61,891 nucleotides of DNA from a virus (lineage: Duplodnaviria > Caudoviricetes). The stretch covers positions 1 through 61,891 of IMG/VR virus record IMGVR_UViG_3300037242_000090. One strand, 5' to 3'. The notes under the pieces were generated by a model. It worked only from the letters and a program-made list of their open reading frames with translations. It was not told the DNA's origin and did not search any database. Shown piece by piece: positions 473-61,048 of this stretch; the first letter of the stretch is position 1, and each line of letters opens with the position of its first letter. The position numbers and the translations under genes are program-made.

Positions 473-487
473 TCTGGACCAGCATCG

Positions 488-647
488 GATATACTTGGCT
501 CATGCGCCAAAATGGCAGCTCAAAGAAAAACGAGAAAAATCGTAAAAATCGCAAATAGGCACTTGACGCATGCGCCGATACTCGATAGGATACAGGCGTC
601 GGATGGAATTGGCCAGCCGACAGGACCGGCGAAAGCCGGAAGGAAAA
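488..647 (+). repeat. Duplicated TIR + promoter + leader module, copy 2 (copy 1 at 61003-61162)
   Basis: ~160-bp imperfect direct repeat: ATATACTTGGCTCAT, A-rich tract, promoter, two hairpins, AGGAAAA RBS. Confidence 0.9.
563..591 (+). promoter_or_regulatory. sigma70-type promoter TTGACG-17-TAGGAT
   Basis: Near-consensus hexamers with 17-bp spacing, upstream A-rich tract, and conservation in the second copy. Confidence 0.75.
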
Positions 648-651
648 TCAG

Positions 652-981
652 ATGAACGGCGAAATGAAATCACACTATGAACTTTCGCGAGGCAACGAAT
701 GGCTGAGTTCTCACTCTACCTTAGAGGCTGCGGCTGCGGCTGCAAAAATAATAATATCCGACGAAAATCCTCAATTTCGAATGACGCCCGTCGGCTCCGG
801 CCGATTAAATGAATTTTCGACCGCAATGCTTGCCCACAATCTTTCGATCTGCGAGTCCACGATCGTGGAGCGTTCCCCCGACCCAGAAACCGCCATGGCC
901 GCAAGGAAAAAATGGGCCGAAATGCAGAAAAACGGCCTAGGATGGGACGGAACAGCCGCGACGTACCGTCCCGTGGAATAA
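652..981 (+). CDS. hypothetical protein (IS passenger)
   Basis: ATG after AAGGAAAA RBS, downstream of the promoter; 109 aa. Confidence 0.7.
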   Translation: MNGEMKSHYELSRGNEWLSSHSTLEAAAAAAKIIISDENPQFRMTPVGSGRLNEFSTAMLAHNLSICESTIVERSPDPETAMAARKKWAEMQKNGLGWDGTAATYRPVE

Positions 982-1097
982 TGAATCCTTGCCGCGCCGC
1001 AGCGCAAGCTGGAAACCAGCTAGGCTTCGGCCAAGATTAGCTCGGTGCTCGTAGGCTGTGAGAGAGCATCCGGCGCGGCTCCTTCGGGAGAGCGAAA

Positions 1098-2042
1098 ATG
1101 GACGAACCCAACTCACTACTTGCGGCCGCGCAATACTTCGCCGATCCGGCGGTCTGCAATCAGTACATGCGGCGGATCAAGTGGCCAGACGGGAAAATCG
1201 CGTGCCCTAAATGTTCGGGCGCGAATATCGGCGAAATCGCCACGCGCCACATTCTGCAATGTCGCGATTGCGGCAAGCAGTTTTCGTACAAAGTCGGCAC
1301 GATTTTTGAGGACTCTCCGCTTGGCCTCGATAAATGGTTCACGGCGGTTTGGTCCGTCGCCAATGCGAAAAACGGGATTAGCAGTCACGAATTAGGCCGG
1401 GCAATGGGTGTGACCCAAAAGACGGCATGGTTTATGACACACCGGATTCGCGAGGCCATGACGACGGGAACATTCCGCAAGCTGTCGGGGACCGTTGAGA
1501 CGGACGAAACTTTCGTCGGCGGCAAAGCCGAGAACATGCACAAGAAAATCCGAGAAAAGAAGATTCGCGGGCGCGGAGCAGTTGGCAAGCGAATCGTTCA
1601 CGGCCTATTGGAGCGCGGCGGCGAGGTCCGCGCCAAGGTCGTTGACTCGACGGAAGCCGCCGATCTCCATCCCGTCATAATTTCTAACGTCGAAAAAGGC
1701 GCGAATCTCTACAGTGATGCCGCTGCCAGCTACGAAGCACTGGCGAGCCGCTACGCCCATGAAGCGGTCAACCACGCCATCGAGTACGTCCGTGAAAATG
1801 TCCACACGAATGGTATGGAGAATTTCTGGGCATTATTCAAACGCTGCATCAAGGGTACGCATATCCAGCTTTCGCCGATGCACCTACAGCGGTATGTGGA
1901 CGAAGAGGTTTTCCGATTCAACCAGCGCAAGACGGATGATGCTGGACGGTTCGCGGCCCTGATGGCACAGACTCCCGGAAAGCGGTTGACCTACAGGCTT
2001 TTAACCGGACAAGACGGTGCCGGATTCATGGGACTCGAATGA
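1098..2042 (+). CDS. IS1595-family transposase
   Basis: N-terminal Zn ribbon (CPKC...CRDC), GTIFEDS, HTH (ISSHELGRAMGVTQKTAW), catalytic motifs ETDETFVGG, YSD, VNH, HTNGMENFW and YVDEEVFRFN. Confidence 0.95.
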   Translation: MDEPNSLLAAAQYFADPAVCNQYMRRIKWPDGKIACPKCSGANIGEIATRHILQCRDCGKQFSYKVGTIFEDSPLGLDKWFTAVWSVANAKNGISSHELGRAMGVTQKTAWFMTHRIREAMTTGTFRKLSGTVETDETFVGGKAENMHKKIREKKIRGRGAVGKRIVHGLLERGGEVRAKVVDSTEAADLHPVIISNVEKGANLYSDAAASYEALASRYAHEAVNHAIEYVRENVHTNGMENFWALFKRCIKGTHIQLSPMHLQRYVDEEVFRFNQRKTDDAGRFAALMAQTPGKRLTYRLLTGQDGAGFMGLE

Positions 2043-2152
2043 AAAAACCAAAGGGATTCAAGGCGTTCGATTCGCTCGCTCGGCTACTCGTTCAAGTGCC
2101 AAAATCTGAGCTTCCGGCTCGCAAACCCAAGTGGAAACGGAAGAAAAAGTGA
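2039..2152 (+). CDS. small basic IS1595-associated peptide (MKKPKGFKAFDSLARLLVQVPKSEL...)
   Basis: ATGA-coupled to the transposase stop; homologues at 20418, 56688 and ~58196. Confidence 0.75.
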   Translation: MKKPKGFKAFDSLARLLVQVPKSELPARKPKWKRKKK

Positions 2153-2246
2153 ACAGCGCTTTTATTCAAAAAACGGTGCTCAATGAGCCAAGTATATCAA
2201 TCCCAATCTGATTACCGGAATGTCCCTGGGGATGGAGTATAAAATG

Positions 2247-2269
2247 GGTGATTATATACTTGACTCACC
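2247..2269 (+). mobile_element. orphan IS1595-type left TIR
   Basis: GGTGATTATATACTTGACTCACC is 22/23 identical to 28621-28643. Confidence 0.75.
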
Positions 2270-2440
2270 CTGCGACTCCTTGCTTGGCTCGGAATGGAAG
2301 GCGTTTGCATTGCACGGCAAGCCCGGATTGGTAATGGTTTGGAGACCAATCGGCGAATCGAACATCAATGAGGCGCTTCGGACCTGCACAACGTGCAGAC
2401 AGTTCGGAAACTGGATTTTCGGCATCAGCGTGAGGACGAA

Positions 2441-2644
2441 ATGACCCAACGGCTTCTCGAACTCAAAGATCAGATCGCCATTCGGGCCGAAGCAATCCGG
2501 GCATTGTTCAAGCCGGGAGCTAAGGTCACGATTGTTGTTACACAACCGGCGCATCGCGGCGACGCTGGCGTTGTCGTCACTGGCGACGATATCGACACCG
2601 TAATAGCCGAGCTTCAAAGAGCAAAGGAAAGACGGGACACATGA
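2441..2644 (+). CDS. hypothetical protein
   Basis: GAGG RBS; ATGA-coupled to the next gene. Confidence 0.65.
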   Translation: MTQRLLELKDQIAIRAEAIRALFKPGAKVTIVVTQPAHRGDAGVVVTGDDIDTVIAELQRAKERRDT

Positions 2645-3039
2645 AAAAGCCCAAAGGCCACACATTTTTCGATGCCCACGGAACGACGCCCTATATGACG
2701 CGATACACGCTCATCGATTGTCGATGGTTCACTTTGAAGCTACACCACTTTCATCGTGGCGATTCTGATCCGGATTTTCACGATCATCCTTGGCCGTTTG
2801 TCGCCTTGATTTTGTGCGGCGGCTATTGGGAGCACACGTCGCGGGGCATTTCATGGAAGGCTCCCGGATCACTCGTATTGCATCGAGCGGCGGATGCTCA
2901 TCGCGTAACGATGGCATCGCCGACATGGACGCTTCTGCTTTGTGGAAAGAAGGTCCGGGACTGGGGATTTCATACTCCATCCGGATGGTGTCGATGGAAA
3001 ACTTATGTGGCCGGGGCGGCCGCTGGGGGTGCGCGATGA
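2641..3039 (+). CDS. cupin-like phage protein
   Basis: LHHFHRGDSDPDFHDHPWPF..LCGGYWEH...HRV..WTL..WGF motif set. Confidence 0.75.
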   Translation: MKKPKGHTFFDAHGTTPYMTRYTLIDCRWFTLKLHHFHRGDSDPDFHDHPWPFVALILCGGYWEHTSRGISWKAPGSLVLHRAADAHRVTMASPTWTLLLCGKKVRDWGFHTPSGWCRWKTYVAGAAAGGAR

Positions 3040-3545
3040 CGGCGATGGAGATCCTGATGAAGGAGTTTGCCTATTGGCGGGACCGGCCAGAGGGCAGCGT
3101 GGCTGCTCCGGGGACCGAGATCGGGGCGATGGGCGCGATCGCGAATGTAATCGCGGCGATTCATGGACATCCGGCGCCCTGGCATATGGGCAAGCTCGGC
3201 GCAATGGACTGCTACCGGACCGAGGACCTGCTGCGCATTGGCATGAAGCTCTATCGCCAGATTCGAGACGAGGACGAGGCGTGGAGCCGCAAGGTCCAGC
3301 GCGGTCATACTAAATTTGATCCTGAAATTGCCCGGCACTTCCGTAAGCGATATGAGGAATGGTACGCACCGTGCGACGCCGTGCTCGTTCTCGTGCAGGA
3401 CATGGAAAGGGATTACGGCCCACTTGCGGGAGGCAACGAATTCAAACTCGCCCGCGTCACAGTCAAACGGATTTTGGCTACGCCCATAGATCAAGTCTGC
3501 AATTCAATGGAACGGATCGCTAAGGGCGACTACGAAGCCTTATGA
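3036..3545 (+). CDS. hypothetical protein
   Basis: ATGA overlap with the upstream gene; open frame. Confidence 0.6.
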   Translation: MTAMEILMKEFAYWRDRPEGSVAAPGTEIGAMGAIANVIAAIHGHPAPWHMGKLGAMDCYRTEDLLRIGMKLYRQIRDEDEAWSRKVQRGHTKFDPEIARHFRKRYEEWYAPCDAVLVLVQDMERDYGPLAGGNEFKLARVTVKRILATPIDQVCNSMERIAKGDYEAL

Positions 3546-3636
3546 CTGCCCCAGGGGAAGGTAGCGGAACGTTCACGACGGCAGTATTCAAGGGAATCCG
3601 GACGTCCAACCCAATCACAAGCCGGCCACCGCACCC

Positions 3637-3918
3637 ATGGCGCCCGACCGTATCGAGTGTGGGGGCTGCGGCACCAGCATCATGTGCGGGAGCTTCACCG
3701 ACTCGCCAGCCCAATACCTGGACGATCTGAAGGCATGGGCCATCCGCCGGGCCGCGCCGTGCGATACCTGTGGCGCCGTGACCGTCTGGTGGGAACTGGC
3801 ATCCGAGCATGGGCGTCCGCTCGGGACGATTTTGCAGGTGCAGACGCCACGGGTGTTGCGGGGAGATGCGGCGCGGGAGTTTTTTTATTCACGGGATAAT
3901 GCCGCGTCCAATTGCTGA
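3637..3918 (+). CDS. hypothetical Cys-pair (Zn-binding?) protein
   Basis: Contains CGGC and CDTC pairs. Confidence 0.4.
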   Translation: MAPDRIECGGCGTSIMCGSFTDSPAQYLDDLKAWAIRRAAPCDTCGAVTVWWELASEHGRPLGTILQVQTPRVLRGDAAREFFYSRDNAASNC

Positions 3919-3945
3919 TCGAGTCGGCGGTGCAACTGCGCAGCA

Positions 3946-3982
3946 GAGTCTATCCAACCCCGCCCTGAGAGCAATCCGCAAC
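3946..3982 (-). repeat. fixed-end repeat, 37-bp inverted copy
   Basis: Exact reverse complement of the first 37 bp of 24802-24892. Confidence 0.95.
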
Positions 3983-4049
3983 TGGTCGCCTGTCCGGCAT
4001 TTTTATTGCGCCAAGAATCCTACCGCGCGTTTCTTCTAATACAAGTAGA

Positions 4050-4646
4050 TTATTTCTTCGGCGGCTTCCCATCACCGCCCCTTGGTTTTCCCGACGCCGC
4101 CTTTTTCACCCCCGGCTCCTGCCACTCCCTGATGCCACCCCATAGCAAAGCGATTACCGCTGCGTCGTGGGTGACGTCGTTGGATTTGGCATAGGAACGC
4201 ACCTGTGCGGCCAGATCGGGCGGCAGGGCCGAAGTCGCCGGAAGTGACGGGAACTGGCTGGAAGTCGCCGGGAGTGGCGTGGAGTGGCGGCCAGCGTCGG
4301 TGGGCTTCTGCGCATCTCCCCCGCCCAGCGGGGCGGCGGGTGGGGCAACCGATGATTCAGTGTCGGGAACGACGAATGCTGCGTAGAATTCGTCCTGAGA
4401 CATCTTCAGGGCTTTGGCCCAGAGCCTTGTCGCATTCGTGAAGATGGGTGCCCGCTCCTGGCGTTCCACCTTGTAGATGCCGCTGGCGGAATAGCCCACC
4501 TCAATACCAAACGACGCTTGGCTATATCCAGCCTTCTTTCGCGCCTTGGCAAATTTTCTGCCAAAAATCTTGACGGTTCTTTCGTCTGTTTCTTCTTCCG
4601 TAACCATGGATGGATCAATCATTAACGGCGTCGGCTGATCCATCAA
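4050..4646 (-). CDS. CI-like XRE HTH repressor
   Basis: FGRKFAKARKKAGYSQASFGIEVGYSASGIYKVER HTH, divergent from the cro-like gene. Confidence 0.8.
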   Translation of the reverse strand: MMDQPTPLMIDPSMVTEEETDERTVKIFGRKFAKARKKAGYSQASFGIEVGYSASGIYKVERQERAPIFTNATRLWAKALKMSQDEFYAAFVVPDTESSVAPPAAPLGGGDAQKPTDAGRHSTPLPATSSQFPSLPATSALPPDLAAQVRSYAKSNDVTHDAAVIALLWGGIREWQEPGVKKAASGKPRGGDGKPPKK

Positions 4647-4647
4647 C

Positions 4648-4710
4648 CTGATTTTATTGTGATTTTTACTCTGATTTTACCTTGACTCTACCGATAGTCA
4701 TAATAAAATG
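4648..4710 (+). promoter_or_regulatory. lysis/lysogeny switch region: TTGACT-16-TAAAAT promoter and three TGATTTT direct repeats
   Basis: AT-rich gap between divergent HTH genes; hexamers at 4682-4687 and 4704-4709. Confidence 0.6.
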
Positions 4711-4718
4711 CTATTCCG

Positions 4719-4943
4719 ATGAGAGATTCATTTAAGAGCATCAGGGAGCGACTGGCCGAATCACAGACGGATTTTGCCGTCCGGGCCGGACTCTCGGTCA
4801 GCACGATCGGCGCGTTTGAATCTGGCCGGGACAGCGAGTTCTCGCCTGGCACAAGGCGCAAGCTGGCCACCGCCTACGGCGTCACCATCGCCGACATTGA
4901 CGCCGCCTGCTCTAGCAAGCCTGCATCGGCGCAGCCGGCCTGA
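4719..4943 (+). CDS. Cro-like HTH protein
   Basis: IRERLAESQTDFAVRAGLSVSTIGAFESG; 74 aa. Confidence 0.85.
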   Translation: MRDSFKSIRERLAESQTDFAVRAGLSVSTIGAFESGRDSEFSPGTRRKLATAYGVTIADIDAACSSKPASAQPA

Positions 4944-5426
4944 GCGTACAGGACTGCCGGATGTGTCCGCCAAGGGAATCCGGCGTAGGGCGGCCGCGCG
5001 TGCAACGGATCGGTTTGGTTTATGACGGATAACGCGGATATGCGGGCGTCCGGCGCCCCGGCGGCGTGAGTGGGGCATCATAAAGGTGTCATGGATGAGA
5101 CACGGGAATTGTGGCGAAGTCTTTCGGTTGCGACAGGAACGGAATGGACCGTAATACGAAACAAACTCGCCGAGAGGTTCCATTAAGCGCCAAGCTGCCG
5201 CCTTGGAGCAATTGTACGACACATTGAAAAACATCGTGGAGTTCGATGACGCCGTTATTGCCCAGGCTTCAGGCGCACAGCCCAACTCCTTCCACAACCC
5301 TCCGTCGCCAGCGCCCAACGGCGCGGCGGCGGATTCACTTTGCGGCGGTGCGGCTGCCGTTAATGACGTGCCGGCAGTCGCGACGTCTGATTTAAGCCAG
5401 GGAAGGATTTCGCCATGGAGTGCCCC

Positions 5427-5810
5427 ATGACAATTTTCGAGAAAATAGTAGCCGTTGACCGGTCAAGGAACGTTGCGTTTACCGCTGTTGAGCGGCTTAC
5501 CGACAAAGCGCAAATGCGCGAGTTCATGGAAGGCTACATCAAGTGGTTGGCGACTAATCCGAGGATCGAGAACGCGAAGGCCGTTGCGGAAGCGGGTTCG
5601 ATCACCTGGGAATCCCTGAGCGACGGGCAGCGCGAGGTGCTGGCCGAGAAGTTCGCCCATGAGCGGGCTGACATGGTGCGCGATGCGCTGCTGGACAACG
5701 ACGAAGGCTTTCCCCTGACGGCTGCTCGGTGCATCGGCCAGAGCATCGTTGATGCATTCTGTGACTGGCGGGAGCAGCGGATTGACGCGATGAACGCGGA
5801 GACAAAATGA
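5427..5810 (+). CDS. hypothetical protein
   Basis: GGAG RBS, open frame with typical codon usage. Confidence 0.65.
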   Translation: MTIFEKIVAVDRSRNVAFTAVERLTDKAQMREFMEGYIKWLATNPRIENAKAVAEAGSITWESLSDGQREVLAEKFAHERADMVRDALLDNDEGFPLTAARCIGQSIVDAFCDWREQRIDAMNAETK

Positions 5811-6119
5811 TCCCAACCAAAAAAGGCGGCGTCGGGATCGCATCGGGGTTGGCGATGGGCATCCTCGCGATTTGCCGCCGGCAAAAACCGTCCGTGACCA
5901 GCGCGACTAGGGATGAGTTCCCCCGGCTCGGCAAGGATCGATGAGCGCCCATGAGAATTCCAGAACGATATTGGTCGCTGATCGCCTGGGCCGAGCAAGG
6001 CGACGCTGATTCTGGCGCCGCGGTCTTGGATGTGGTCCTGGTGGCGATAGTAATGCTGGCGATGCTTTTTTTTGCCCGCCGGTGAACGACTTTAAGGTGT
6101 GCGGCGGAGTCATTGGATG

Positions 6120-6627
6120 GGTACTGACATACTTGGCTCACCATGCACCAAAGTTTAACAAAACCAGCCGATAACAAGTTCCACGTCGGCAACCGCGCAG
6201 ACGGTAAGCACTATTGGCTAACGCCACCAGCGATTTATGCTCAACTCGACGCCGAATTTCATTTTGACTTCGATCCATGCCCTCATCCGCTGCCACCGGG
6301 GTTTGACGGGCTTTTGTGCGAATGGGGGCAATCGAATTATGTCAACCCGCCATTCGGATCCATCATCCACCAGGGATGCAAGAAAGGACCGACGGCATGG
6401 GTGCGGAAGGCCATCGCTGAACACGCCAAGGGCAAGACGGTTGTTTTGGTTTATCCGGTGGACAAATGGGTTTTGATGCTTCTTAACGTCATTGGTGCGA
6501 GCGTTCGCAACCTCGGCGACGTGCGATGGTGCGCGACCGAGGATGGTACGCCGGGAAGGGGAACGGGCCGACACATTGCCTGTTTTACCCTAGGAAGAGG
6601 ACGCGGTGAGTGAAGTATATCAGTACC
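6120..6627 (+). mobile_element. Non-autonomous IS1595-type cassette carrying an adenine MTase
   Basis: 23-bp TIRs 6120-6142 and 6605-6627 match 20/23; perfect 8-bp TSD ATTGGATG at 6112-6119 and 6628-6635. Confidence 0.92.
6143..6613 (+). CDS. phage-type DNA N6-adenine methyltransferase
   Basis: WLTPP, FHFDFDPCP, DGL..EW, YVNPPF motifs. Confidence 0.8.
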   Translation: MHQSLTKPADNKFHVGNRADGKHYWLTPPAIYAQLDAEFHFDFDPCPHPLPPGFDGLLCEWGQSNYVNPPFGSIIHQGCKKGPTAWVRKAIAEHAKGKTVVLVYPVDKWVLMLLNVIGASVRNLGDVRWCATEDGTPGRGTGRHIACFTLGRGRGE

Positions 6628-6672
6628 ATTGGATGATTCCGCTCCGGAGGCGAGCTATAACGCCGCCGGGAT

Positions 6673-6709
6673 GGGCCGGGAGTTTGTTCGGTATTCCCGG
6701 CCCCTTTTT
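6673..6709 (+). terminator. Rho-independent terminator
   Basis: GGGCCGGGA/TCCCGGCCC stem followed by a T run. Confidence 0.55.
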
Positions 6710-6955
6710 GAAAAATTCTCCAGACTGAATGGGAAACGAAAATGTGTCTTGGAATATCGGCTGAAATCGGAATCTTCGACGGGGTGCTCAAAGTCTGGCT
6801 GGGCGACCCCGACTGCACCGGACCGGATCGCGATAGGCATGAAAAGATCAGGAATTTTCACAAACTCAAAATCGATAACGGCGACCCCCGCCGGCATCGC
6901 CCACCGCCCGTCTGAGGCGCGTGAACTTGTGGAAGTTGGAGGCGCGGCATAGCCC

Positions 6956-7507
6956 ATGACCACAGACGCCCCCACAACTCCGCAGCCTACAACATCGCTT
7001 ACTTCGCTGCACGTTCCAGATCTGCAATCTCTGACAATGCAGATTATAGGTCGGGACGCGCAGCTTTCTAAAGAGCAAATCGCCCTGGCGTATGACACCA
7101 TCGCTAGGGTCAAGGAGTTCACCCAAGAACTGAAGATGGCCCTAGACGAGCAAACCATCAACTTTATCAGGGATTACGGCGACTTCTCTGTTGAGGGCAT
7201 CCGTTATTATTTTGGCATCCCCAAAAAGTACAGCATTAATGATGTCGAGCGCGCCCTGGAAGTGGCGCTGGAAGTCGAAGGGGGCGACCTATCCGCCGTC
7301 GCGCAATGGTTCGCATCAGATCCGATCAAGGCTGGGTACGCCCGCTCCCGCCTGGAGGAAAAGGGCAGGCCGGAATTGTTCGACCAGCTTTTCGCAACCG
7401 ACGAAACAGAGGAGGTGAGAGAGGGCAAGCCAAAACAAGAAAAGAAACTGATTAAGGTGAGTGAAGATTTTATACCAAAGCGACTTAACTCAACATCACA
7501 AGGATAA
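6956..7507 (+). CDS. hypothetical protein
   Basis: 183-aa ORF in the recombination operon. Confidence 0.7.
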   Translation: MTTDAPTTPQPTTSLTSLHVPDLQSLTMQIIGRDAQLSKEQIALAYDTIARVKEFTQELKMALDEQTINFIRDYGDFSVEGIRYYFGIPKKYSINDVERALEVALEVEGGDLSAVAQWFASDPIKAGYARSRLEEKGRPELFDQLFATDETEEVREGKPKQEKKLIKVSEDFIPKRLNSTSQG

Positions 7508-7512
7508 TCCAA

Positions 7513-8121
7513 ATGAACATCAACGATGTATACCCGAGCCGATGGCTCAAGGCATCCGATTTAAGCGGAGATACAACCGTCACAATCAAGTCCGTCAAAG
7601 CCGAAAGCGTCGGCAAGGGCAATGATGCCAAAGACAACCGGGCGGTCGCCTATTTTAACGAACTTGAAAAGGGCTGCGTTCTGAATGTGACCAACAAGAA
7701 CACCATCGTCAATCTATATGGTTTGCTCACCGAACAGTGGATCGGTAAGCGTATTACGCTCTTTGCGACCGAAGTGGATTACCAGGGCAGCCAGATTTTG
7801 GCAATTCGTGTGCGGATGCGTGCGCCGGAATCAGCGCAGTCGGCACCAACGGGAGGAGTCCAGGGCGGGATTACCGTCGAACAGCTCAGGGATGAAGCCA
7901 AGCGGGCCGCATGGGCGCAGTTCAAGGCGGCCTATCCGAATTTGGCACAAGATGCTTTGGTTTATCAGTTCAAACAGTCTGCCACTGCGTATTTCAACGG
8001 CACACCGCCGGACGCGACGGGTTGGCGTCGATTCGCTGATGACAGGTTTACTAAACAGCCGGTCACCGCACCGGCTTTCGATGAGATTGGACCGGGCGCC
8101 GACATAGACTGCCCATTTTGA
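7513..8121 (+). CDS. putative phage ssDNA-binding/recombination protein
   Basis: MNINDVYPSRWLKASDL...LNVTN...WIGKRITL family pattern; acidic C-terminus ending in PF. Confidence 0.65.
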   Translation: MNINDVYPSRWLKASDLSGDTTVTIKSVKAESVGKGNDAKDNRAVAYFNELEKGCVLNVTNKNTIVNLYGLLTEQWIGKRITLFATEVDYQGSQILAIRVRMRAPESAQSAPTGGVQGGITVEQLRDEAKRAAWAQFKAAYPNLAQDALVYQFKQSATAYFNGTPPDATGWRRFADDRFTKQPVTAPAFDEIGPGADIDCPF

Positions 8122-8167
8122 TCATCGCCTTAAGCAACGGCGCACGGGATAAACCCCGTTCGCTGTT

Positions 8168-8650
8168 ATGAACATGGCCACAGATCGTGTTGTCAACTTC
8201 TCCGACATTACCCAAAAGCGAGAGCTTTTGTCTAAGCTGGGCGCACTCCGGGGTCGTCAGCGCGTCCGCATAACCAAATTCCAGAGTCACCGGACACTGG
8301 CACAAAATAGTTTCTGGTGGGCGGCGATTATCACGCCATTACGCGATTGGCTCATCGAGCAAACCGGCGATGTAACAATCACGCTGGAACAAACTGCGGT
8401 GATACTCAAGCTGGAAATCAATTGGGTAAAGGAAGTCATCAGCCCCGTGACCGGGGAAGTGCAGCGGATTCCGAAGGACACACACAACCTGGGCGTTTCT
8501 GATTTCTCGGAACTGATTGAGCTTGCGGGCAACTGGGAAGCTAAATTCTGTGATATCGTGATTGCGGACGTAGCGAATTACATCGAGCCGCCGGCGCAGG
8601 CCAAGCCGAAGCGGCTGGTGGAAGCGAAGGAGGCGCAGCATGTCTGTTGA
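8168..8650 (+). CDS. NinB/YbcN-like recombination protein
   Basis: RTLAQNSFWW and T..L.VSDFSELIE motifs. Confidence 0.6.
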   Translation: MNMATDRVVNFSDITQKRELLSKLGALRGRQRVRITKFQSHRTLAQNSFWWAAIITPLRDWLIEQTGDVTITLEQTAVILKLEINWVKEVISPVTGEVQRIPKDTHNLGVSDFSELIELAGNWEAKFCDIVIADVANYIEPPAQAKPKRLVEAKEAQHVC

Positions 8651-9263
8651 AACAACGTATCGGTGCGATATATGTAAAGGAGAAAAGTGCAACGGCAGCA
8701 CCGTTCCCCTTTTTGGATTTAACGTCGGGCGCGATCGCATTAAGGCATGCCCAGTCGCCAAGGCGAATTATCATGCTTGCAGCGGTTGTCTGGATAATCT
8801 CATCAACGCGGGATCGGCACTGTTGCTGGCTTCGCCGCAGCTTCCTTCCGATAAAGCAGGGGCATCGCCTGCACCCCGCCGTCCCCGTCGCGCCACGCTC
8901 CCCACCGGCCTAGGCGTAGACCCCGCGCGTATCGCCGAGCAACCGCCGCCGGATGATGCACCAATTGCTACCACCGGCGCCGAGCCACAGAAACTTGCAA
9001 GCGCTGGCCGCGCTCCCGCGCCGCCCAAAACTGACAGTGAACACGTCAACATAGATGACGCCCTGAGCCAGCCCTGGGACAAACGCCTGATCTTCCTACA
9101 CGATACAGTAGAAAAATTATTACCCGGCTTGATGTTCGATGTGTTCAAAAAAGCGATTGAGCTGAAGATCGGGCTGCTTGGGTACAAGGGCAAGGAATCG
9201 AAGATGCCCACGGAAAAACGTCGGGAACTGTACGAAATGGTTGTTAAGGGAGAGGTGCCGTAG
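8640..9263 (+). CDS. hypothetical protein with N-terminal Zn-finger
   Basis: YRCDIC...HACSGC followed by a Pro-rich linker. Confidence 0.65.
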   Translation: MSVETTYRCDICKGEKCNGSTVPLFGFNVGRDRIKACPVAKANYHACSGCLDNLINAGSALLLASPQLPSDKAGASPAPRRPRRATLPTGLGVDPARIAEQPPPDDAPIATTGAEPQKLASAGRAPAPPKTDSEHVNIDDALSQPWDKRLIFLHDTVEKLLPGLMFDVFKKAIELKIGLLGYKGKESKMPTEKRRELYEMVVKGEVP

Positions 9264-9272
9264 GAGCCACAA

Positions 9273-9827: not shown

Positions 9828-9952
9828 CAAGAAGGGCCATCGGCTCATCACCAAAATCAAAACGAAGGATTTCGCCTAATGAAGTTCCGCAGCCTGTCAA
9901 TCTTCCCCCGCCGCACCCGCCAATTCAGGATGGGCGGGAAGGTATATATACC

Positions 9953-17920: not shown

Positions 17921-17961
17921 GAGAGGTAAGTCGAACAAATACTGAAGGGAAGGTTGATTCT

Positions 17962-55337: not shown

Positions 55338-55386
55338 CCCCGCACGCCCCATTCCCTTCTTTCCGACTTTCCGACTATCATTCTCA

Positions 55387-55404
55387 CGGTACTATTCACT
55401 TGAC
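55387..55404 (+). mobile_element. IS1595-type end (CGG variant)
   Basis: CGGTACTATTCACTTGAC is 17/18 identical to 59807-59824. Confidence 0.65.
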
Positions 55405-55450: not shown

Positions 55451-55627
55451 CTACTTCCGCCGCCGCTTCTTCGGTTCTGAGATTGACGCTTCCGCCCTGA
55501 TCTGGGCCACGTCTGCCGGCTTGATCTTTAGCAGACCGGCTAGGGCTTGTTCTGGCGTCAACGGGTAGAGGGATATTGGATTACCCTTGCGGCCGTTGGG
55601 GTTTGGGTTGTGGCGCTTCTTGGCCAT
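55451..55627 (-). CDS. small basic peptide pointing at the 55387 end
   Basis: MAKKRHNPNPNGRKGNPISLYPLTPEQALAGLLKIKP...KKRRRK*; 58 aa. Confidence 0.6.
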   Translation of the reverse strand: MAKKRHNPNPNGRKGNPISLYPLTPEQALAGLLKIKPADVAQIRAEASISEPKKRRRK

Positions 55628-56046: not shown

Positions 56047-56196
56047 ATGAATTGCCCCGCCAAAAGCCTGATCGAAGCCGTCCGCTACTTCGCGGATCGG
56101 GCTGTCGATGACGTGATGAGCCGGGTCGTGGGCCGTCGAATCACTTGGCGGCAATTGTGCGAAGTGGACGGCGCTGGATTCATGGGATTGGAGTGA
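56047..56196 (+). pseudogene. internally deleted IS1595 transposase (N- and C-termini fused in frame, 49 aa)
   Basis: AKSLIEAVRYFADRAV resembles PNSLLAAAQYFADPAV; VVGRRITWRQLCEVDGAGFMGLE* resembles the transposase C-terminus. Confidence 0.85.
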
Positions 56197-56198
56197 GC

Positions 56199-56408
56199 AT
56201 GGGTCTAAAAATGAATAGCGCCGGCGTGGCGTGGGAAGTCGAGGACGACGGGGGGATTCTGCACAGCGTCACACGTCTCCCGTCCGGTCGATATTCCGGG
56301 GAAATGCGCGTTTATGGCCGTGTTGTAATCGAAGGCGTTGAATACGAATTTGATCGCTGTGTAAAGGTGGCGATGAAAAAGCAAAAAGAGCCGGAGAATA
56401 ACACATGA
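56199..56408 (+). CDS. hypothetical cargo protein
   Basis: ATG 2 bp after the remnant stop; ATGA-coupled to the next gene. Confidence 0.55.
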   Translation: MGLKMNSAGVAWEVEDDGGILHSVTRLPSGRYSGEMRVYGRVVIEGVEYEFDRCVKVAMKKQKEPENNT

Positions 56409-56707
56409 GAATAGACATCGTGCTTCCTTCCGAGGTCACCATACCGGACGATCAGCTTCTCCATCTGGCAAAACGTATCCGAGAAAGATTTGAAATGGAT
56501 GACGACGCCCCCGTCGGCGGCCACGATTTGGTGGCCGAGGCAATTCTCGCCGGATTGCTGAATGGCGACGAATTTTCTGGCTGGGAGGTGGCCCCGCACG
56601 AGGACCAGGAATACACAGACGAGGAGCTTCGGGCCATCCAGCGAGAGGCGACGGAAAAGCATTCAGCCACAATCCGAAAGGGCAGGCATGGGAAGCAAAA
56701 AACCTAA
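56405..56707 (+). CDS. hypothetical cargo protein
   Basis: GGAG RBS; acidic 100 aa. Confidence 0.65.
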   Translation: MRIDIVLPSEVTIPDDQLLHLAKRIRERFEMDDDAPVGGHDLVAEAILAGLLNGDEFSGWEVAPHEDQEYTDEELRAIQREATEKHSATIRKGRHGKQKT

Positions 56708-56795
56708 AGGCTTTAAAAACTTCGATGCTCTGATGCGCAAGCTAGTCAAGGTGCGACCGAAGGCGCGTAAACCGACGCCGCGAAAAACGAAATGA
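56688..56795 (+). CDS. small basic IS1595-associated peptide (MGSKKPKGFKNFDALMRKLVKVRP...)
   Basis: Homologous to 2039 and 20418; ~33 bp inside the right TIR. Confidence 0.75.
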   Translation: MGSKKPKGFKNFDALMRKLVKVRPKARKPTPRKTK

Positions 56796-56827
56796 GAAAT
56801 CACGATGCAAAACTCGAACGGGATCAA

Positions 56828-56850
56828 GGTGAGTCAACTAAGTCATTACC
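56828..56850 (-). mobile_element. IS1595-type right TIR
   Basis: GGTGAGTCAACTAAGTCATTACC; its reverse complement is 19/21 identical to 19527-19547. Confidence 0.8.
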
Positions 56851-56885: not shown

Positions 56886-57314
56886 GTGAACCTTACCTCA
56901 TCCGACATCCACTCCCTTCCCGACGGCCCCGCGAAGCGGGACATGCTGCGCCAGCTTGGCAAGAGCGCATCATCCCAAGCGGCGCCTATCCGCGCATCCC
57001 TTCCCCGTGGGATGAACAAGCTGGAGAAGCGCTACGCCGATCACCTGGACTTTCTGAAGCGCGGTGGGGAGATCACCGCATGGTGGTACGAGTGCGTGCG
57101 GTTCAGAATCGGAGCGGGGGCTCAGTACAAACCAGACTTCATCGTGCTATTGCCGGACGGGAAGATTGAAGTGCACGAAACCAAGGGGTTCCGTCGTGAA
57201 GCTGCGATGGTGCGGATCAAGGCCGCTGCGGAGCGTTACGCGCCCATCCCCTTCTTTCTGGTGAGGGTGCTGCAAGGGCGGTGGTGCAGGACGAGAGTGG
57301 GGGAAGGGAGATAA
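56886..57314 (+). CDS. PD-(D/E)xK nuclease (DUF1064-like)
   Basis: MNKLEKRY...YKPDF...EVHETKGF. Confidence 0.8.
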   Translation: MNLTSSDIHSLPDGPAKRDMLRQLGKSASSQAAPIRASLPRGMNKLEKRYADHLDFLKRGGEITAWWYECVRFRIGAGAQYKPDFIVLLPDGKIEVHETKGFRREAAMVRIKAAAERYAPIPFFLVRVLQGRWCRTRVGEGR

Positions 57315-57316
57315 TC

Positions 57317-58360
57317 ATGGGCACAAAGACGAATATTTCCTGGACGACACACTCCTACAATCCGTGGTGGGGCTGCGTGAAGGTCCACGACGGCTGCAAA
57401 AACTGTTATGCGGAGCGCGAGAGCAACCGATACGGCTATGATGTTTGGGGGCCGCACTCCGAGCGCCGCATGTTCGGCGATAAACACTGGAACGAACCGA
57501 TGAAATGGAACAAGGTGGCCGAGCGCGAAGGCCAGCGCCATCGCGTGTTCTGCGCCTCGATGGCCGACGTGTTTGAGGATCATCCCGCTCTGCCAAGGCC
57601 GCGCGGGCGTCTTTTCGATTTGATCTGTCGAACGCCTTATCTCGACTGGCAGGTGTTGACCAAGCGCCCAGAGAACGCGCTGCGGATGATGGTTGAGGCT
57701 GGACTATATGCTTGCGAGAATCCCGATCTGCCTTGTCCGCAACCAAATCTGTGGATCGGCACAAGCCCATGTAATCAAGCGACACTCGAACGTGAATATC
57801 CATTGCTGCGTAAAGTTCCGGCGGCACTCCGCTTTATTTCCTACGAGCCGGCGATTGATGAGGTGGATTTAACCGGATGCCTTGATGGGATTGGCTGGGT
57901 GATTATCGGCGGTGAATCCGGACCGAAAGCCCGCGAGTTCGATGTGCTGTGGGCGGAAAAGACTATCGGACAATGCCGCGCCGCCGGCGTTCCCGTGTTC
58001 GTGAAACAGCTTGGCGAGAATCCGATGATCGGTGACTCATCCGAACCGCACGGCTGGCCTCAGCGCCGCGGTGTAGTGGACTGGGAAACCGGCAAGATTC
58101 GGTTGCGCGACCGGAAGGGCGCCGATCCATCCGAATGGCCAGAACATTTGCGGGTCCAAGAGTTTCCTGTATCGCCGGCGGCATCGCATCCGATTCTGGC
58201 TCGCAAGCTGGTTAAGGTTCCGCCGACCGAATTGGTGACGTGGATTGGTTGCCCAATGTGTAATCCGCAAGGCAAGTCGCCGCATGTGTACATGGGAACG
58301 CCATGCCCCATGTGCAATGACGAAGGGTGGATCAAGCCTAAACGGAAAAAGCGAAAATGA
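57317..58360 (+). CDS. Gp37/Gp68 (DUF5131) family protein with foreign C-terminal extension
   Basis: TNISWT..YNPWWGC.KV..GCKNCYAE, FCASMADVF, LTKRPE, IIGGESG, FVKQLG. Confidence 0.9.
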   Translation: MGTKTNISWTTHSYNPWWGCVKVHDGCKNCYAERESNRYGYDVWGPHSERRMFGDKHWNEPMKWNKVAEREGQRHRVFCASMADVFEDHPALPRPRGRLFDLICRTPYLDWQVLTKRPENALRMMVEAGLYACENPDLPCPQPNLWIGTSPCNQATLEREYPLLRKVPAALRFISYEPAIDEVDLTGCLDGIGWVIIGGESGPKAREFDVLWAEKTIGQCRAAGVPVFVKQLGENPMIGDSSEPHGWPQRRGVVDWETGKIRLRDRKGADPSEWPEHLRVQEFPVSPAASHPILARKLVKVPPTELVTWIGCPMCNPQGKSPHVYMGTPCPMCNDEGWIKPKRKKRK

Positions 58361-58932
58361 GAACTTGGGAAAACCATCGCGATGTCTCCGAAGACCAACT
58401 GAACGCCGCTCACTGCGGAATCTTCGCAAAGAAATCGGCGCGGCGCGAACGGCCCGACGCATCACGGCCGCAGTTGTTCGCCGCACCGCCACCGCAACCA
58501 CAACCCAAACCATTCACCGGCATCCGCATCGACGGTGTGTTGCACTTCGATGGCTCATGTTTTCCAAACCCAGGCGAGAGCCAATGCGGATTCGCGCTGC
58601 ACGTCGGCATGAAAATCGTCGAACGATCAATCCGGCTCGGGCATGGGACGAACAACACCGCCGAATATAACGGCGCGATTCATGGCCTACGCGCAGCTCT
58701 GGAACTTGGCGTTACGCATCTTGAGATTTACGGTGACAGCCAACTTGTGATTCGCGGGCTGCAAAAGGGACCGTGGGCCAAGGGCAAGCCGCATTTGGAA
58801 GTGCTGAAAAAGGAATCGCTGGAATTAATGGCGCGATTCTCGGTTGTTGATCTGAATTGGGTGCCACGCGAAGAAAACGCGCGGGCGGATGAACTGTCGA
58901 CGGCCGGGGTTGATGCTTTGACTCGCGTGTGA
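58357..58932 (+). CDS. ribonuclease HI-like protein
   Basis: FDGS..PNPG, TNNTAEY, GDSQLV, WVPREENARADELS. Confidence 0.9.
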   Translation: MRTWENHRDVSEDQLNAAHCGIFAKKSARRERPDASRPQLFAAPPPQPQPKPFTGIRIDGVLHFDGSCFPNPGESQCGFALHVGMKIVERSIRLGHGTNNTAEYNGAIHGLRAALELGVTHLEIYGDSQLVIRGLQKGPWAKGKPHLEVLKKESLELMARFSVVDLNWVPREENARADELSTAGVDALTRV

Positions 58933-58996: not shown

Positions 58997-59800
58997 ATGG
59001 TGGCTTTGCGGAAACGAGGCGGTCGTAGCGCTGCGGGCTGCCTAATAATGATCGTTGTCGGAACTATCGTCGGGGTTTGGATACACTCCGAGATTCCCCA
59101 AATCTCCAATAACACCGCGCCGCCACCGGCGCCGCAAATCTCCAGCCCAGAGCACTCGAGCGTTCCGCCAAGGAGCACCACGCAAACAGCCACACCCGAG
59201 CCCTCGATTTTTGACCTTGAGACGGCATTGAAAACCGCCAAACAACGCGAACTCAACGCCCGATTTGCCGTGATTACCGCCCTGGGCAATGACCCCAAAT
59301 ATATTTCTGCACAGCAAACGGTGAAATCTCTCTCGCATCAGGTAGAGGCCACCCGCAACGGCGGCGACGGAGATATTCAGGATCTCGCCAAGCAGCTGCT
59401 CGATGCAAGGCCGGTAATGGGAAAACTGGAAACAGCGGCGCTGGCTGAGAATGCCGAAGAGCAGGCCGCGGTCGCCGAAGTCGCCGGCTGCAAATCAAGA
59501 TACGATTTTGCGGCCGCCGCGAAACGCATCGCAGACGAAAAGACGCATGCCGATTTCAGGCGCGAGCTTGCAGACGAACAGGCCAAAATCGACAATGGCC
59601 CGATGAACATCGTCATAAGAAAGCATCAATTGATAGAGGGAATGACGATTGCGCAGGCCGTGGAGTCTTTAGGGAATCCGTACTCAATATCGAAATCCGG
59701 AAATACCACGGTTCTCGACTGGGCAAGAACTGACGGCGACTATTGGAGCGGAATATTTGTGGACGATTCCGCAGTCACCGTCACCCACACCAGGTTTTGA
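58997..59800 (+). CDS. membrane-anchored/exported hypothetical protein
   Basis: GGAGG RBS, N-terminal TM segment, GMT..Q....LG.P C-terminal motif. Confidence 0.7.
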   Translation: MVALRKRGGRSAAGCLIMIVVGTIVGVWIHSEIPQISNNTAPPPAPQISSPEHSSVPPRSTTQTATPEPSIFDLETALKTAKQRELNARFAVITALGNDPKYISAQQTVKSLSHQVEATRNGGDGDIQDLAKQLLDARPVMGKLETAALAENAEEQAAVAEVAGCKSRYDFAAAAKRIADEKTHADFRRELADEQAKIDNGPMNIVIRKHQLIEGMTIAQAVESLGNPYSISKSGNTTVLDWARTDGDYWSGIFVDDSAVTVTHTRF

Positions 59801-59806
59801 GAATGA

Positions 59807-59824
59807 CGGTATTATTCACTTGAC
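59807..59824 (+). mobile_element. IS1595-type end (CGG variant)
   Basis: CGGTATTATTCACTTGAC; its 9-bp flank is the reverse complement of the flank at 55387. Confidence 0.65.
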
Positions 59825-60066
59825 CATAGTACAGGCTATTGAGAGCCTTGAAGGTGAATTCACAAAACAGAACGTAATTGATTGGATCGACGAGAAATAC
59901 CCAGAGATGGGCGCCACGGGGAGAAAGCCCACCATCTCAACGCTGATTGCAAAACTGCGAACGAAACTGAATCTCGAAACGGTGGGTTCTCCGACAGGAT
60001 CAGAACCGCATAGGTTTCGGAAGAAGGGACCACCCGTAAAAACAGAGAAAGAGAGGTAGAGGAATA

Positions 60067-60098
60067 CCGAGACCTCCAGGGCCAACTGGAGGTCTCGG
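60067..60098. terminator. perfect 13-bp hairpin
   Basis: CCGAGACCTCCAG-GGCCAA-CTGGAGGTCTCGG right after a stop codon. Confidence 0.5.
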
Positions 60099-60431
60099 AA
60101 AATCTTGGGCTACCGGACGGCCAGGGGCCGGGGTGAACCCGATACATCAGGCCACGTCAGTATCGGCGAAATCCCCTACGGCATCAAGTGAAAAGTCCGG
60201 AGTGGAGGCTTCCAGCGATGGTAGCCAAACAATCTCCGTTCGCGCCGGCGGAGCAACATCCGGCGCAAGGTATTCCGCCACCATCAAGCGGAAAACATGT
60301 TGTCTTTGACAACGACGAGAGCGAGCCGGTTGCCATAAAGCATCGGCGCTGTCGGCGTAGCGGACAGTTTAGGCGCGTGCGGCCGTCAGATCCCACGCCA
60401 ATGTTGTTCGCGATGAACAACTAATTCTTCT

Positions 60432-60466
60432 GGACTGGAGGCGAGAAAGTCGTCTCCGGTCCTTTT
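60432..60466 (+). terminator. hairpin + T run immediately before the tRNA
   Basis: GGACTGGAGGCGA/TCGTCTCCGGTCC followed by TTTT. Confidence 0.5.
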
Positions 60467-60467
60467 G

Positions 60468-60550
60468 GCGGTTGTGGCGGAACTGGTAGACGCCGTGCGC
60501 TTGGAGCGCGCCGGGCCATGCCCGTCCCGGTTCAAATCCGGGCAACCGCA
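60468..60550 (+). tRNA. class II tRNA with Leu-type body and TGG anticodon
   Basis: Acceptor GCGGTTG/CAACCGC+A, D arm GCG-GAACTGGTAGA-CGC, anticodon arm GTGCG-CTTGGAG-CGCGC, V arm CGGGC-CAT-GCCCG, T arm CCCGG-TTCAAAT-CCGGG; no encoded CCA. Confidence 0.85.
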
Positions 60551-60616
60551 GGAAATTTGAACGGAACGATCCGAAGAGTATCGTTAATCGCATCCGGTAT
60601 CAGGGGACGGTTACAT

Positions 60617-61048
60617 ATGCCGAACAAAGAAGCCTGGAAAACCATTCTGGAACATGAAAGGCTGTGCTGGGAGTCGGAGTGTGAAAACGCAGAGCGATTG
60701 GTAAACCGAATGCGAATGATGTCAGCAATAGCCGCCGTGGTTTTGGGCGTTGGCCTTTTCAAATTTGATTGGCTTTACACTCCGACCGACATCTCGCGGA
60801 TCGGTACCGGCTGGGTACTTTTCACTATTAGAATTCTTCTGGTCGCATCACTGATTTGTTTGGCAGTTGCTTTTTGGCACGCAATGAAGCCGAGCAGGCC
60901 TCGCCGAAAAACACATGCAAGCCATTATATGTTCCTACAAGATCGACACGTTACTGCCATGCCCACCACCGGATCGGGAGCCGCAGCCCTTATTTTGGGA
61001 TCGATATACTTGGCTCATAGGCCAAAATGGCAGCAAAAAGAAAAATGA
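60617..61048 (+). pseudogene. membrane protein apparently truncated by the TIR at 60997
   Basis: Two TM segments; the last residues (GSIYLAHRPK...) are read from the TIR/promoter module. Confidence 0.55.
60997..61018 (+). mobile_element. IS1595-type left TIR
   Basis: 21/22 inverted match to 2183-2204. Confidence 0.85.

Follow-up and report, generated by a model that had tools for sequence, protein, structure and literature searches.

Background

Insertion sequences (ISs) of the IS1595 family that carry passenger genes are known as 'transporter IS' (tIS; Siguier, Gagnevin and Chandler 2009, as described in PMC3129680), and the same article describes, next to the tIS category, mobile insertion cassettes (MICs) as well as solo inverted repeats, naming IS231-MIC231 of Bacillus cereus (De Palmenaer et al. 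2004) as an example of a MIC. Among viruses, MITEs (miniature inverted-repeat transposable elements) were detected de novo in about 0.01% of sequences, mostly two in each (Nadal-Molero et al., 10.1101/2024.01.18.576219; PMC11602168), and the mycobacteriophage elements MPME1 and MPME2 are described as inverted-repeat elements of about 440 bp with one open reading frame (ORF), scattered, often truncated and sometimes made hybrid by recombination (PMC4351075). In this report we analyse the IS1595-related DNA of a phage genome, IMG/VR record IMGVR_UViG_3300037242_000090. The window is this whole virus record, 61,891 bases, which is classed as having direct terminal repeats and a completeness of 100%. 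The phage has probably been invaded repeatedly by several related lineages of one IS1595 subgroup, which are decaying in it into cargo cassettes, solo ends and fossils.

The gain of single accessory genes by phages is usually ascribed to illegitimate or homologous recombination, with no visible mechanism. Accessory genes that lie between core genes are called morons, a class defined by position, and we know of no insertion mechanism for them. No description of cassettes such as those reported here was found for phages in the open-access literature.

Results and Discussion

Transposon ends and target duplications

The 11-mer TACTTGRCTCA, allowing at most one mismatch, occurs 12 times in the window where 0.74 occurrences are expected, and a count of 12 was reached in none of 100 shuffles. 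Eleven of these sites are ends that had been named in an earlier, sequence-only reading of the genome, and the twelfth (61075) is a subterminal repeat inside an element. When they are all turned the same way, the sites can be extended to a 23-nt end, GG-N8-TACTTGRCTCA, with the GG ten bases upstream. A scan of the window with a position weight matrix (PWM) gave 10 full-length ends of 34-41 bits, five per direction, whose outer bases are as follows.

2247, 6120, 19527, 28621 and 60997, plus strand: left-facing ends (PWM)
2204, 6627, 20589, 51039 and 56850, minus strand: right-facing ends (PWM)

Together with a degenerate end at 482 they bring the total to 11. After these no site exceeds 9.6 bits, and 20 shuffles had maxima of 3.0-16.5 bits. 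The matrix was trained on the window's own ends and in-window scores are not independent; independent support comes from the count of the 11-mer against shuffles and from matches in other genomes. All of the ends are located between called ORFs. The sequence-only reading had counted about 14 ends, of which the ten full-length ends and the degenerate one are borne out, while the 'CGG variants' at 55387 and 59807 and the 'divergent' end at 55692 score -2.0, -4.4 and -16.7 bits and are not members of the family.

Two pairs of ends, 6120/6627 (ATTGGATG) and 19527/20589 (AAATGGTT), are flanked by the perfect 8-bp target site duplications (TSDs) that had been claimed for them. When the PWM was scanned over the window, other phage records and bacterial loci, as the earlier reading had proposed, the same end family was recovered. 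We collected transposase relatives from 19 viral contigs (35-76% identity) and from 80 bacterial contigs, the best 80 of 382 (49-63%), and counted end pairs at those loci that had full flanks and a PWM end on each side (13 viral, 47 bacterial). Perfect 8-bp TSDs enclose 7/13 viral and 38/47 bacterial pairs (45/60 overall), and one viral and three bacterial pairs more have a TSD with one mismatch. The TSD-supported elements are 1.7-3.9 kb long versus a transposase gene of 0.93 kb, so passenger DNA is the rule in them. The expectation that IS1595 elements make 8-bp duplications and carry passengers holds in the window and beyond it. Pairs lacking a TSD are commoner in phages (5/13 versus 6/47 in bacteria; Fisher p=0.049), a difference that rests on small numbers and is open to assembly-switch ambiguity.

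The motif contains a TTGAC/TTGGC string and sits between genes, as would a phage regulatory operator or promoter element unrelated to transposition, an alternative that the sequence-only reading had itself raised. It is contradicted by the inverted pairs with duplicated flanks, both in the window and around IS1595 transposases of unrelated phages and bacteria, and no sigma-70-like promoter was called around the pair 6120/6627. TSD-flanked end pairs around transposase relatives, with passenger DNA between them, rule out the operator reading, to which we attach next to no credence, and place the elements among the IS1595 tIS.

The autonomous element E1

A single element of the window, E1, retains a transposase. 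Its ends at 60997 and 2204 are 96% complementary, and a viral locus with a related transposase (L023) has the same architecture, in the order left end, ORF149 homologue, transposase, small ORF and right end. For these reasons E1 is better read as running from 60997 across the contig junction to 2204, about 3.0 kb. Its ends are identical to those of L023 at 21-23 of 23 positions. The parts of E1, with its terminal inverted repeats (TIRs), are as follows.

60997-61019, plus strand: left TIR (PWM 30.2 bits; 96% complementary to 2183-2206; 21/23 identical to both L023 ends)
61118-61567, plus strand: ORF149, passenger gene upstream of the transposase (84% amino acid identity to the ORF in the same position in L023, record G015)
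482-504, plus strand: L', degenerate internal copy of the left end (PWM 15.8-21 bits; outer 9 nt diverged, 1-nt indel)
652-981, plus strand: ORF109, second upstream passenger ORF (ORF call; no family found)
1098-2042, plus strand: IS1595-family transposase, apparently intact (PF12762, PF12760, NF033547)
2039-2152, plus strand: small ORF of 37 amino acids, companion of this IS group, its start overlapping the transposase stop (ATGA)
2182-2204, minus strand: right TIR (PWM 33.6 bits; 23/23 identical to the L023 right end)

The claim of one intact IS1595 transposase at 1098-2042 was upheld. PF12762 is matched over profile positions 1-153 of 153 (142 bits, cut-off 27), the zinc ribbon PF12760 at 35.6 bits (cut-off 25.4; C36, C39 and C55 invariant in the alignment) and NF033547 at 186 bits (cut-off 75). 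All 54 of the 54 invariant columns of a 28-sequence alignment are retained, including D136, D207, N238, E241 and K248, some of which we take to be the catalytic residues. The IS1595 domain occurs once in the record (DDE domain, 1479-1922). Upstream of the transposase lies an internal segment of 1.2 kb with a repeat-protein ORF, the degenerate end at 482 and ORF109. Since 488-650 is a duplicate (90%) of 61003-61165, the end at 482 is then, if E1 runs from 60997 to 2204, an internal degenerate duplicate of the E1 left end. ORF149 has no family in Pfam, NCBIfam, PHROG or PADLOC.

Positions 982-1100 of the window are 98.3% identical to a truncated copy in L023, whose phage shares no backbone gene with this one, so that the same IS lineage is present in unrelated phages. 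In L023 the transposase gene is interrupted by an ORF of 177 amino acids (L023 3367-3900), the N-terminus of which presumably resembles a homing-endonuclease motif. The 5' end of a second, truncated transposase abuts the end of another element at L023 1552, so elements are nested there.

The small ORF is shared well beyond E1. For a hidden Markov model (HMM) we excised three window copies by their coordinates; after iteration it gave 80 matches at E<=0.001 in 99 loci and the window, just downstream of the transposase and on either strand. The product has the motif [FY]xxFxxLxRxLLxVP[KH]xE followed by a basic tail; it has no Pfam or NCBIfam family, and the ESM Atlas returned only 'hypothetical protein' clusters. 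Because it is retained beside the right end in the two derivatives called B and C below, the small ORF is part of the element rather than cargo. A complex prediction for the transposase and the small protein scored 0.00, without controls, and is evidence neither way.

Cassettes A, B and C

Three further elements of the window lack a working transposase gene. Their parts are listed below, with reference to L009, another viral locus with a related transposase.

6112-6635, plus strand: cassette A with its 8-bp TSDs, an element of 508 bp (6120-6627) with ends of 36.7 and 34.8 bits
6143-6613, plus strand: Dam-like N6-adenine DNA methyltransferase, the sole content of cassette A (phrog_111, 2e-16)
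19519-20597, plus strand: cassette B with its 8-bp TSDs, an element of 1063 bp (19527-20589) with ends of 33.7 and 34.9 bits
19598-19660, plus strand: 21-codon remnant of a transposase C-terminus in cassette B (tblastn, residues 294-314; L009 alignment)
19673-19885, plus strand: ORF70, second cargo ORF of cassette B
19931-20497, plus strand: ORF188, cargo of cassette B (18 viral relatives, 44-69% identity)
20418-20528, plus strand: small-ORF copy beside the right end of cassette B (68% amino acid identity to the E1 copy; HMM E=8e-13)
56047-56850, plus strand: cassette C, left end lost (right TIR 56828-56850, PWM 34.0 bits)
56047-56196, plus strand: collapsed transposase gene of cassette C, codon ~20 joined to the last ~30 codons
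56145-56408 and 56405-56707, plus strand: two cargo ORFs of cassette C
56688-56795, plus strand: small ORF of cassette C (HMM 6.7e-8)

Both TSD-bounded pairs had been said to enclose only cargo. This is true of cassette A, in which no trace of transposase or small ORF is left and the methyltransferase ORF starts directly after the left TIR and has its stop codon within the right TIR (the product scores 27.6 bits against PF05869, just below the cut-off of 28.1). It is not true of cassette B, which contains the transposase remnant and the small ORF. Both cassettes have two features of a MIC, namely TIRs at both ends with no transposase (B keeps only its 21-codon stub) and a coding passenger, the methyltransferase in A and ORF188 in B. 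As both are protein-coding and conserved, they fall outside the definition of MITEs as small and non-coding.

In cassette C, 56047-56106 is 96.7% identical to L009 3001-3060, and 56105-56196 matches L009 3857-3948. At the level of sequence, B and C can be recognised as deletion derivatives of elements of the L009 type. A deletion junction common to B and C would have been proof of long-term propagation without a transposase; we rejected this idea, the junctions being different, and the two have thus decayed independently. The region between the transposase 3' end and the small ORF is wholly different in content among B, C, L009 and E1, and is therefore a variable cargo slot. A PADLOC search of 10 cargo ORFs gave no match.

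An alternative is that the window is a passive graveyard, in which full autonomous ISs lost their transposases in place and the cassettes never moved and have no function as a class. The transposase stubs with their different junctions agree with this, as do solo ends and fossils, signs of ongoing decay, and a cargo without recognisable function except for the methyltransferase. Cassette A, with its ORF abutting both TIRs and nothing left of the parent element, does not, and the cargo ORFs are intact and conserved.

Cargo-only cassettes in other phages

Viral contigs contain 325 relatives of the cassette A methyltransferase, the best 80 of which are 72-84% identical over residues 1-150. We fetched 98 cargo loci, consisting of these best 80 of 325 and the 18 loci with ORF188 relatives. 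Ends of the present family were found in 9/98, and in 8/9 they are TSD-bounded around the cargo gene.

L165: methyltransferase cassette of 532 bp, TSD TAAAATTT
L180, identical to L182: methyltransferase cassette of 531 bp, TSD ATTTGTTT
L238: cassette of 517 bp with an ORF188 homologue, TSD TTCGTTTT
L159: autonomous form of 1649 bp with an IS1595 transposase (150 bits) and the methyltransferase, TSD ATTAAAAA
L153, identical to L154 and L155: two 181-bp units around a Dam-like methyltransferase (2146-3502 in L153), outer 8-bp TSD CATTTTTG
L188: truncated transposase beside the methyltransferase, with two same-facing ends about 2 kb to either side and no TSD

The 181-bp units of L153 are direct repeats, non-coding, ended by inverted repeats and identical to each other at 179/181 positions, and the arrangement is identical in three viral records. 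They alone fit the definition of a MITE, and to judge by this sequence the locus is a compound element built from MITEs. The insertion sites of the cassette-bearing phages differ, and the phages are unrelated. No IS1595 transposase domain was found in 4/5 of the cassette-bearing phage records tested, all five of which are incomplete (23-87%).

Since 72/80 methyltransferase loci have no such ends, the methyltransferase is a common phage gene that was captured. Neither the 5' junctions nor the end subtypes agree among the three single-gene methyltransferase cassettes, which are either old or of more than one origin. Mobilisation in trans predicts just such perfect TSDs, at different sites, around units without a transposase. 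Cargo-only cassettes of this end family thus appear to transpose as cassettes, and their recurrence suggests that they can carry genes between phages. For cassettes A and B themselves, the case for mobilisation in trans by a cognate transposase is a comparative one, drawn from these other phages.

These loci argue against the passive graveyard. Three methyltransferase cassettes and one ORF188 cassette, all of 517-532 bp, have their own perfect TSDs at different sites, and it is unlikely that precise deletions in place would have arrived at one minimal form again and again; in addition, one composite is flanked by MITEs and has an outer TSD. We consider it improbable that the cassettes never moved.

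End subtypes, phylogeny and density

The ends of the window fall into several subtypes, matching different autonomous elements of other phages. Those of cassette A are 21-22/23 identical to the ends of a further viral locus, L011; the right end of cassette B is identical to an L009 end (23/23); the right end of cassette C is nearest to L009 and L010 (20/23); and the solo ends 2247 and 28621 share another subtype. The 11-nt core is common to all subtypes, and the outer 10 nt differ. Among the elements of the window the closest internal match is 90% over 163 nt, and there are no close duplicates. Several end subtypes without close copies point to repeated independent arrivals rather than to copying by a resident enzyme. 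The ends (GG-N2-AT-NAT) may also resemble the GGnnatTAT ends of the ISfinder subgroup ISNwi1.

An apparently intact resident transposase, an end core common to all subtypes and two cassettes with both TIRs and TSDs are also what would be seen if that transposase currently mobilised all of the cassettes, the genome being one coordinated cargo-shuffling system. This is a strong form of the sequence-only reading, in which accessory genes were gained and shuffled through cassettes moved in trans. However, the resident end subtype occurs in no cassette, A being L011-like and B L009-like in the outer 10 nt; every element of the window is single-copy and diverged; the deletion junctions of B and C differ; and the solo-end flanks, compared by eye in all orientations, match nowhere and show no TSD and no signature of intragenomic transposition or inversion. 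What survives of the earlier proposal is that non-autonomous TIR-bounded cassettes exist, with TSD-bounded cargo homologues at other sites in phages; movement by the resident enzyme and shuffling within the genome find no support, and a single coordinated system seems to us an unlikely account.

In a quick maximum-likelihood tree of 94 rows (L032, L034, L013, L099, L023 and L026 were dropped as short or interrupted matches) the window transposase belongs to a virus-only clade of six, with L009, L010, L011 and L012 (identical to L025), supported by a Shimodaira-Hasegawa-like approximate likelihood ratio test (SH-aLRT) value of 97. This clade is nested in a clade of 17 rows, the other 11 of which are Planctomycetota (support 99), and the remaining phage-borne transposases are dispersed over Acidobacteriota and further groups. 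The 11 best bacterial matches, among the best 80 of 382, are all Planctomycetota metagenome-assembled genomes (57-63% identity).

The number of ends in this genome is exceptional, as had been claimed. When the same PWM was applied with a threshold of >=14 bits, 11 ends accompanied a single transposase in the window. In 16 other IS-bearing phage records the counts were 0-4 for ends and 1-3 for transposase matches per record, and five further cassette-bearing phage records contained 2-4 convincing ends apiece, which makes the window the densest of the 22 phage records examined (0-4 ends in each of the other 21). Shuffled records totalling 926 kb gave one match of >=14 bits. As a sum of parts, recognisable IS-derived DNA comes to ~6 kb, about a tenth of the genome.

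Solo ends and a fossil

The remaining pieces of the family in the window are three solo ends and a fossil.

2247-2269, plus strand: solo left end (PWM 35.0 bits), 42 bp from the E1 right end, no partner
28621-28643, plus strand: solo left end (PWM 34.5 bits), 7 nt past the stop of ORF 26985-28613 (542 amino acids)
51017-51039, minus strand: solo right end (PWM 32.6 bits), 250 nt after the tape-measure gene
58196-58378, plus strand: fossil of a right-end region that lacks a TIR, in which the C-terminus of ORF 57281-58360 is fused to a small-ORF remnant

In the fossil, 58345-58378 is 94% identical to 20513-20546 of cassette B, and the gene that follows begins as in cassette B. No small ORF was found at the solo end 51039. 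Downstream of the solo end 28621 lies a beta-helix (tail-fibre-like) gene at 28867-30405 (PF13229, 37.1 bits). Just inside the same end is a small ORF with two CxxC pairs (28657-28857, minus strand), whose weak matches to DnaJ-type or Anti-TRAP zinc fingers are all below cut-off; ORF70 of cassette B and the fossil at 58.2 kb likewise have inserts with CxxC pairs. ORF 2641-3039, downstream of the solo end 2247, matches phrog_4786 ('cysteine dioxygenase', 138 bits) and has a small-ORF-like N-terminus; its start overlaps the ORF before it in the same ATGA arrangement. Possibly a right end was deleted here and left this ORF as a fusion.

Integrity of the assembly

Repeated ISs can mislead assemblers, and a chimeric contig joined across IS ends would make the density an artefact. 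Two properties of the data could be cited for this. The first concerns two other phage records, G004 (2876-15897) and G017 (1124-14145), which are 99.99% identical from an exact IS terminus onward and unrelated beyond it. We do not take this pair as proof of IS-mediated mosaicism, since it would look no different if the assembly had switched within a repeated IS. The second is that both ends of the contig lie in a 30-bp tandem array (1-141 and 61712-61891), which contains the 'direct terminal repeat' of the record; bases 1-112 and 61780-61891 match at 94%. We regard a circular or terminally redundant genome, with a junction array of uncertain length, as the best reading. The array itself sits inside an ORF that crosses the contig junction, encodes decapeptide repeats and continues to 472.

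Against a chimera, the sequence shared by elements of the window amounts to no more than 23 nt, with mismatches, at the ends and a single 163-nt stretch at 90%. In Logan the phage is present as contigs in one run only, which is probably the source sample, so that these contigs check the assembly and not the biology. Made by an independent assembler, they bridge 2204/2247, cassette A and cassette B, six ends in all, with 0 differences, and break at other repeats (3946-3982 and 16247-16307). Over 1100-21000 the depth stays even (10-13), except for a single bin that reaches 31 at the high-depth repeat 3946-3982. Other related elements of the sample account for a joint 20486->20567 and for the loose ends at that place. 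PHROG matches identify a large terminase, a portal, a protease-capsid fusion and a tape-measure gene (48774-50789), each module being complete and single-copy, and replication and methyltransferase genes are also encoded; with its terminase, portal, protease-capsid and tape-measure genes the window is a genuine tailed phage. That the contig is chimeric is very improbable.

Proposed history

We return to repeated invasion by several related IS1595 lineages followed by decay. The elements of the subgroup have 23-bp TIRs, 8-bp target duplications, a DDE transposase with the conserved small basic ORF, and usually passengers. One of them, E1, has retained its transposase, and the other copies would be derivatives at various stages of decay, namely two TIR- and TSD-bounded cassettes (A and B), one without a left end (C), the three solo ends and at least one end-less fossil. 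Going by what is expected of the family, the transposase would bind the TIRs and insert the intervening DNA at a cut staggered by 8 bp. Whatever DNA two compatible TIRs enclose would be moved, so transposase-less cassettes could be mobilised in trans, the helper being the cognate transposase of a related element in the same phage, in a co-infecting phage or in the host. Insertions would survive only between genes; the ends would erode over time, and the cargo would persist as ordinary phage accessory genes. Of this scheme, the data show the ends, their TSDs, the descent of B and C from L009-type elements and the TSD-bounded cargo-only cassettes that recur in other phages; we infer mobilisation in trans, where the helper comes from, the sequence of events and whether the cargo is of any advantage.

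Several points weigh against this history. E1 has no TSD, its flanks being CTTATTTT and AATCTGAT. Cassettes B and C could have lost their transposases after insertion, and are then no proof of mobilisation in trans themselves. No partner end was found for the solo ends 2247, 28621 and 51039, whose interiors have no match to the fetched elements beyond the TIR. The ends 28621, 51039, 56850 and 60997 lie outside the contig check, and their integrity is argued from the shortness of the shared stretches (23 nt or less, with mismatches), which should not lead an assembler astray. Sampling may in part account for the virus-only clade, with one bacterial genome per species and IMG/VR contigs that are possibly prophages, and a PWM trained on window ends favours the window in the density comparison, yet ends down to 14 bits were found elsewhere. 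Among the Logan contigs of the one run there is no cassette-less joint or excision variant; since contigs cannot show rare variants, this is silent on mobility. Lastly, the collections searched hold no close relative of the phage. The phage collection has no match for window 7000-30000, the flanking proteins at 6956-7507 and 19093-19401 have no relatives in viral contigs, relatives of the large terminase are only 38-41% identical, no backbone genes are common to the window and the 16 IS-bearing phage records, and one metagenome scan, with 10104-12209, gave a single weak match of 37 residues. With no sufficiently close relative, there is no empty site to examine.

A broader proposal, which we put forward tentatively and hold to be possible rather than probable, is that a phage-specialised IS1595 lineage serves gene-cassette delivery among environmental phages, moving single genes (an orphan Dam-like methyltransferase, for example), enclosed by 23-bp ends, in trans between co-infecting phages and hosts, genes that become morons after their ends have eroded. 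As part of this same speculative proposal the small basic ORF beside the right end could be a new accessory factor of transposition.

Other features of the phage genome

The phage had been called temperate, a description that we could not support because neither kind of recombinase reaches cut-off in the window: the best match to the tyrosine recombinase family PF00589 scores 13.7 bits (cut-off 27.1), and PF00239 (serine recombinase) has no match. The match to PF00589 (10317-10682, minus strand) falls inside the stretch taken up by the plus-strand ORF 10104-12209. An XRE-type regulator pair is present at 4050-4943, and does not by itself establish lysogeny. The host of the phage is probably a planctomycete.

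The shared sequence at 55387 and 59807 was tried as the ends of a second element type, and rejected because the window has no further copy of the 18-mer common to both, and neither the 16 phage records nor the 80 bacterial loci contain it. It is loosely IS-end-like (GG-N7-CACTTGAC, at 55378-55404 and 59798-59824, both facing one way). A 9-mer stands before each copy, and the two 9-mers are exact reverse complements; they could be a 9-bp duplication split by an inversion, with nothing else in favour of it. A small basic ORF lies beside the first site (55451-55627, minus strand).

A 37-nt repeat occurs in four copies, at 3946-3982 (minus strand) and at 24802-24838, 26189-26225 and 26317-26353 (plus strand), and two of them extend to an identical 91 nt (24802-24892 and 26317-26407). 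In the source run the contig with the 37-nt repeat has a depth of 180, against about 11 for the phage, so the repeat is highly repeated in that community. The 91-nt repeat has no relevant Rfam match, has a fold that is not unusual (z 0.24) and is absent from five planctomycete genomes. ARAGORN called a tRNA-Pro (tgg) at 60468-60550, ~450 nt upstream of the left end 60997, and did not call a marginal tRNA-like Rfam match (29.8 bits) at 23846-23902.

Comparison with known systems

The same cargo gene is seen across phages in every stage, with a transposase, as cargo only and in a MITE-flanked composite, and transposon ends and TSDs still present on inserted genes make a transposon route for phage gene gain directly testable. 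The window records several independent invasions and so offers a natural series in which mobile cassettes decay into fixed phage genes. A further outcome of the analysis is the definition, in a little-studied IS family, of a phage-associated clade and of a conserved small protein that has no database name. If the cargo includes anti-restriction functions, as the methyltransferase suggests, counter-defence genes would be spread horizontally among unrelated phages.

The system of the window is one of tIS/MIC-type elements, unusually dense and phage-associated. A transposase with DDE_Tnp_IS1595 and zinc-ribbon domains, TIRs starting with GG, 8-bp TSDs and extra genes are features of the tIS as described in PMC3129680, and both E1 and the autonomous form in L159 have them. 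Compared with the tIS of that description, the present family is phage-borne, forms a virus-only clade, has a conserved small ORF that the family libraries do not know, and is present in the window mostly as copies without a transposase. The MICs of the same article, in which inverted repeats of IS type surround transposase-less passenger DNA that is presumed to be moved in trans, are matched by A, B, L165, L180 and L238. IS231-MIC231 belongs to the IS4/IS231 family, whereas the cassettes reported here are of IS1595 origin, lie in phage genomes and include minimal one-gene forms of ~0.5 kb in which the gene abuts both repeats.

With the viral MITEs our elements share a non-autonomous nature, TIRs and TSDs and presence in a small share of phages, and the 181-bp units of L153 are themselves MITEs. 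As MITEs are defined in PMC11602168 they are non-coding, whereas the cassettes of the window encode proteins. The main text of that survey has 0 occurrences of IS1595 or Planctomycet; its supplementary lists might already include some of the 0.5-kb elements as 'MITEs'. The MPMEs are likewise very small single-ORF elements with inverted repeats, scattered among phage genomes. Compared by description (PMC4351075), they have one conserved ORF of 123 residues and a 6-bp spacing, whereas the elements of this phage have variable cargo, 8-bp TSDs and an IS1595 parent.

The result of these insertions, single accessory genes between conserved phage genes, looks like a genome with morons. Unlike morons, the inserted genes of the window still bear the transposon ends and target duplications that explain their arrival.

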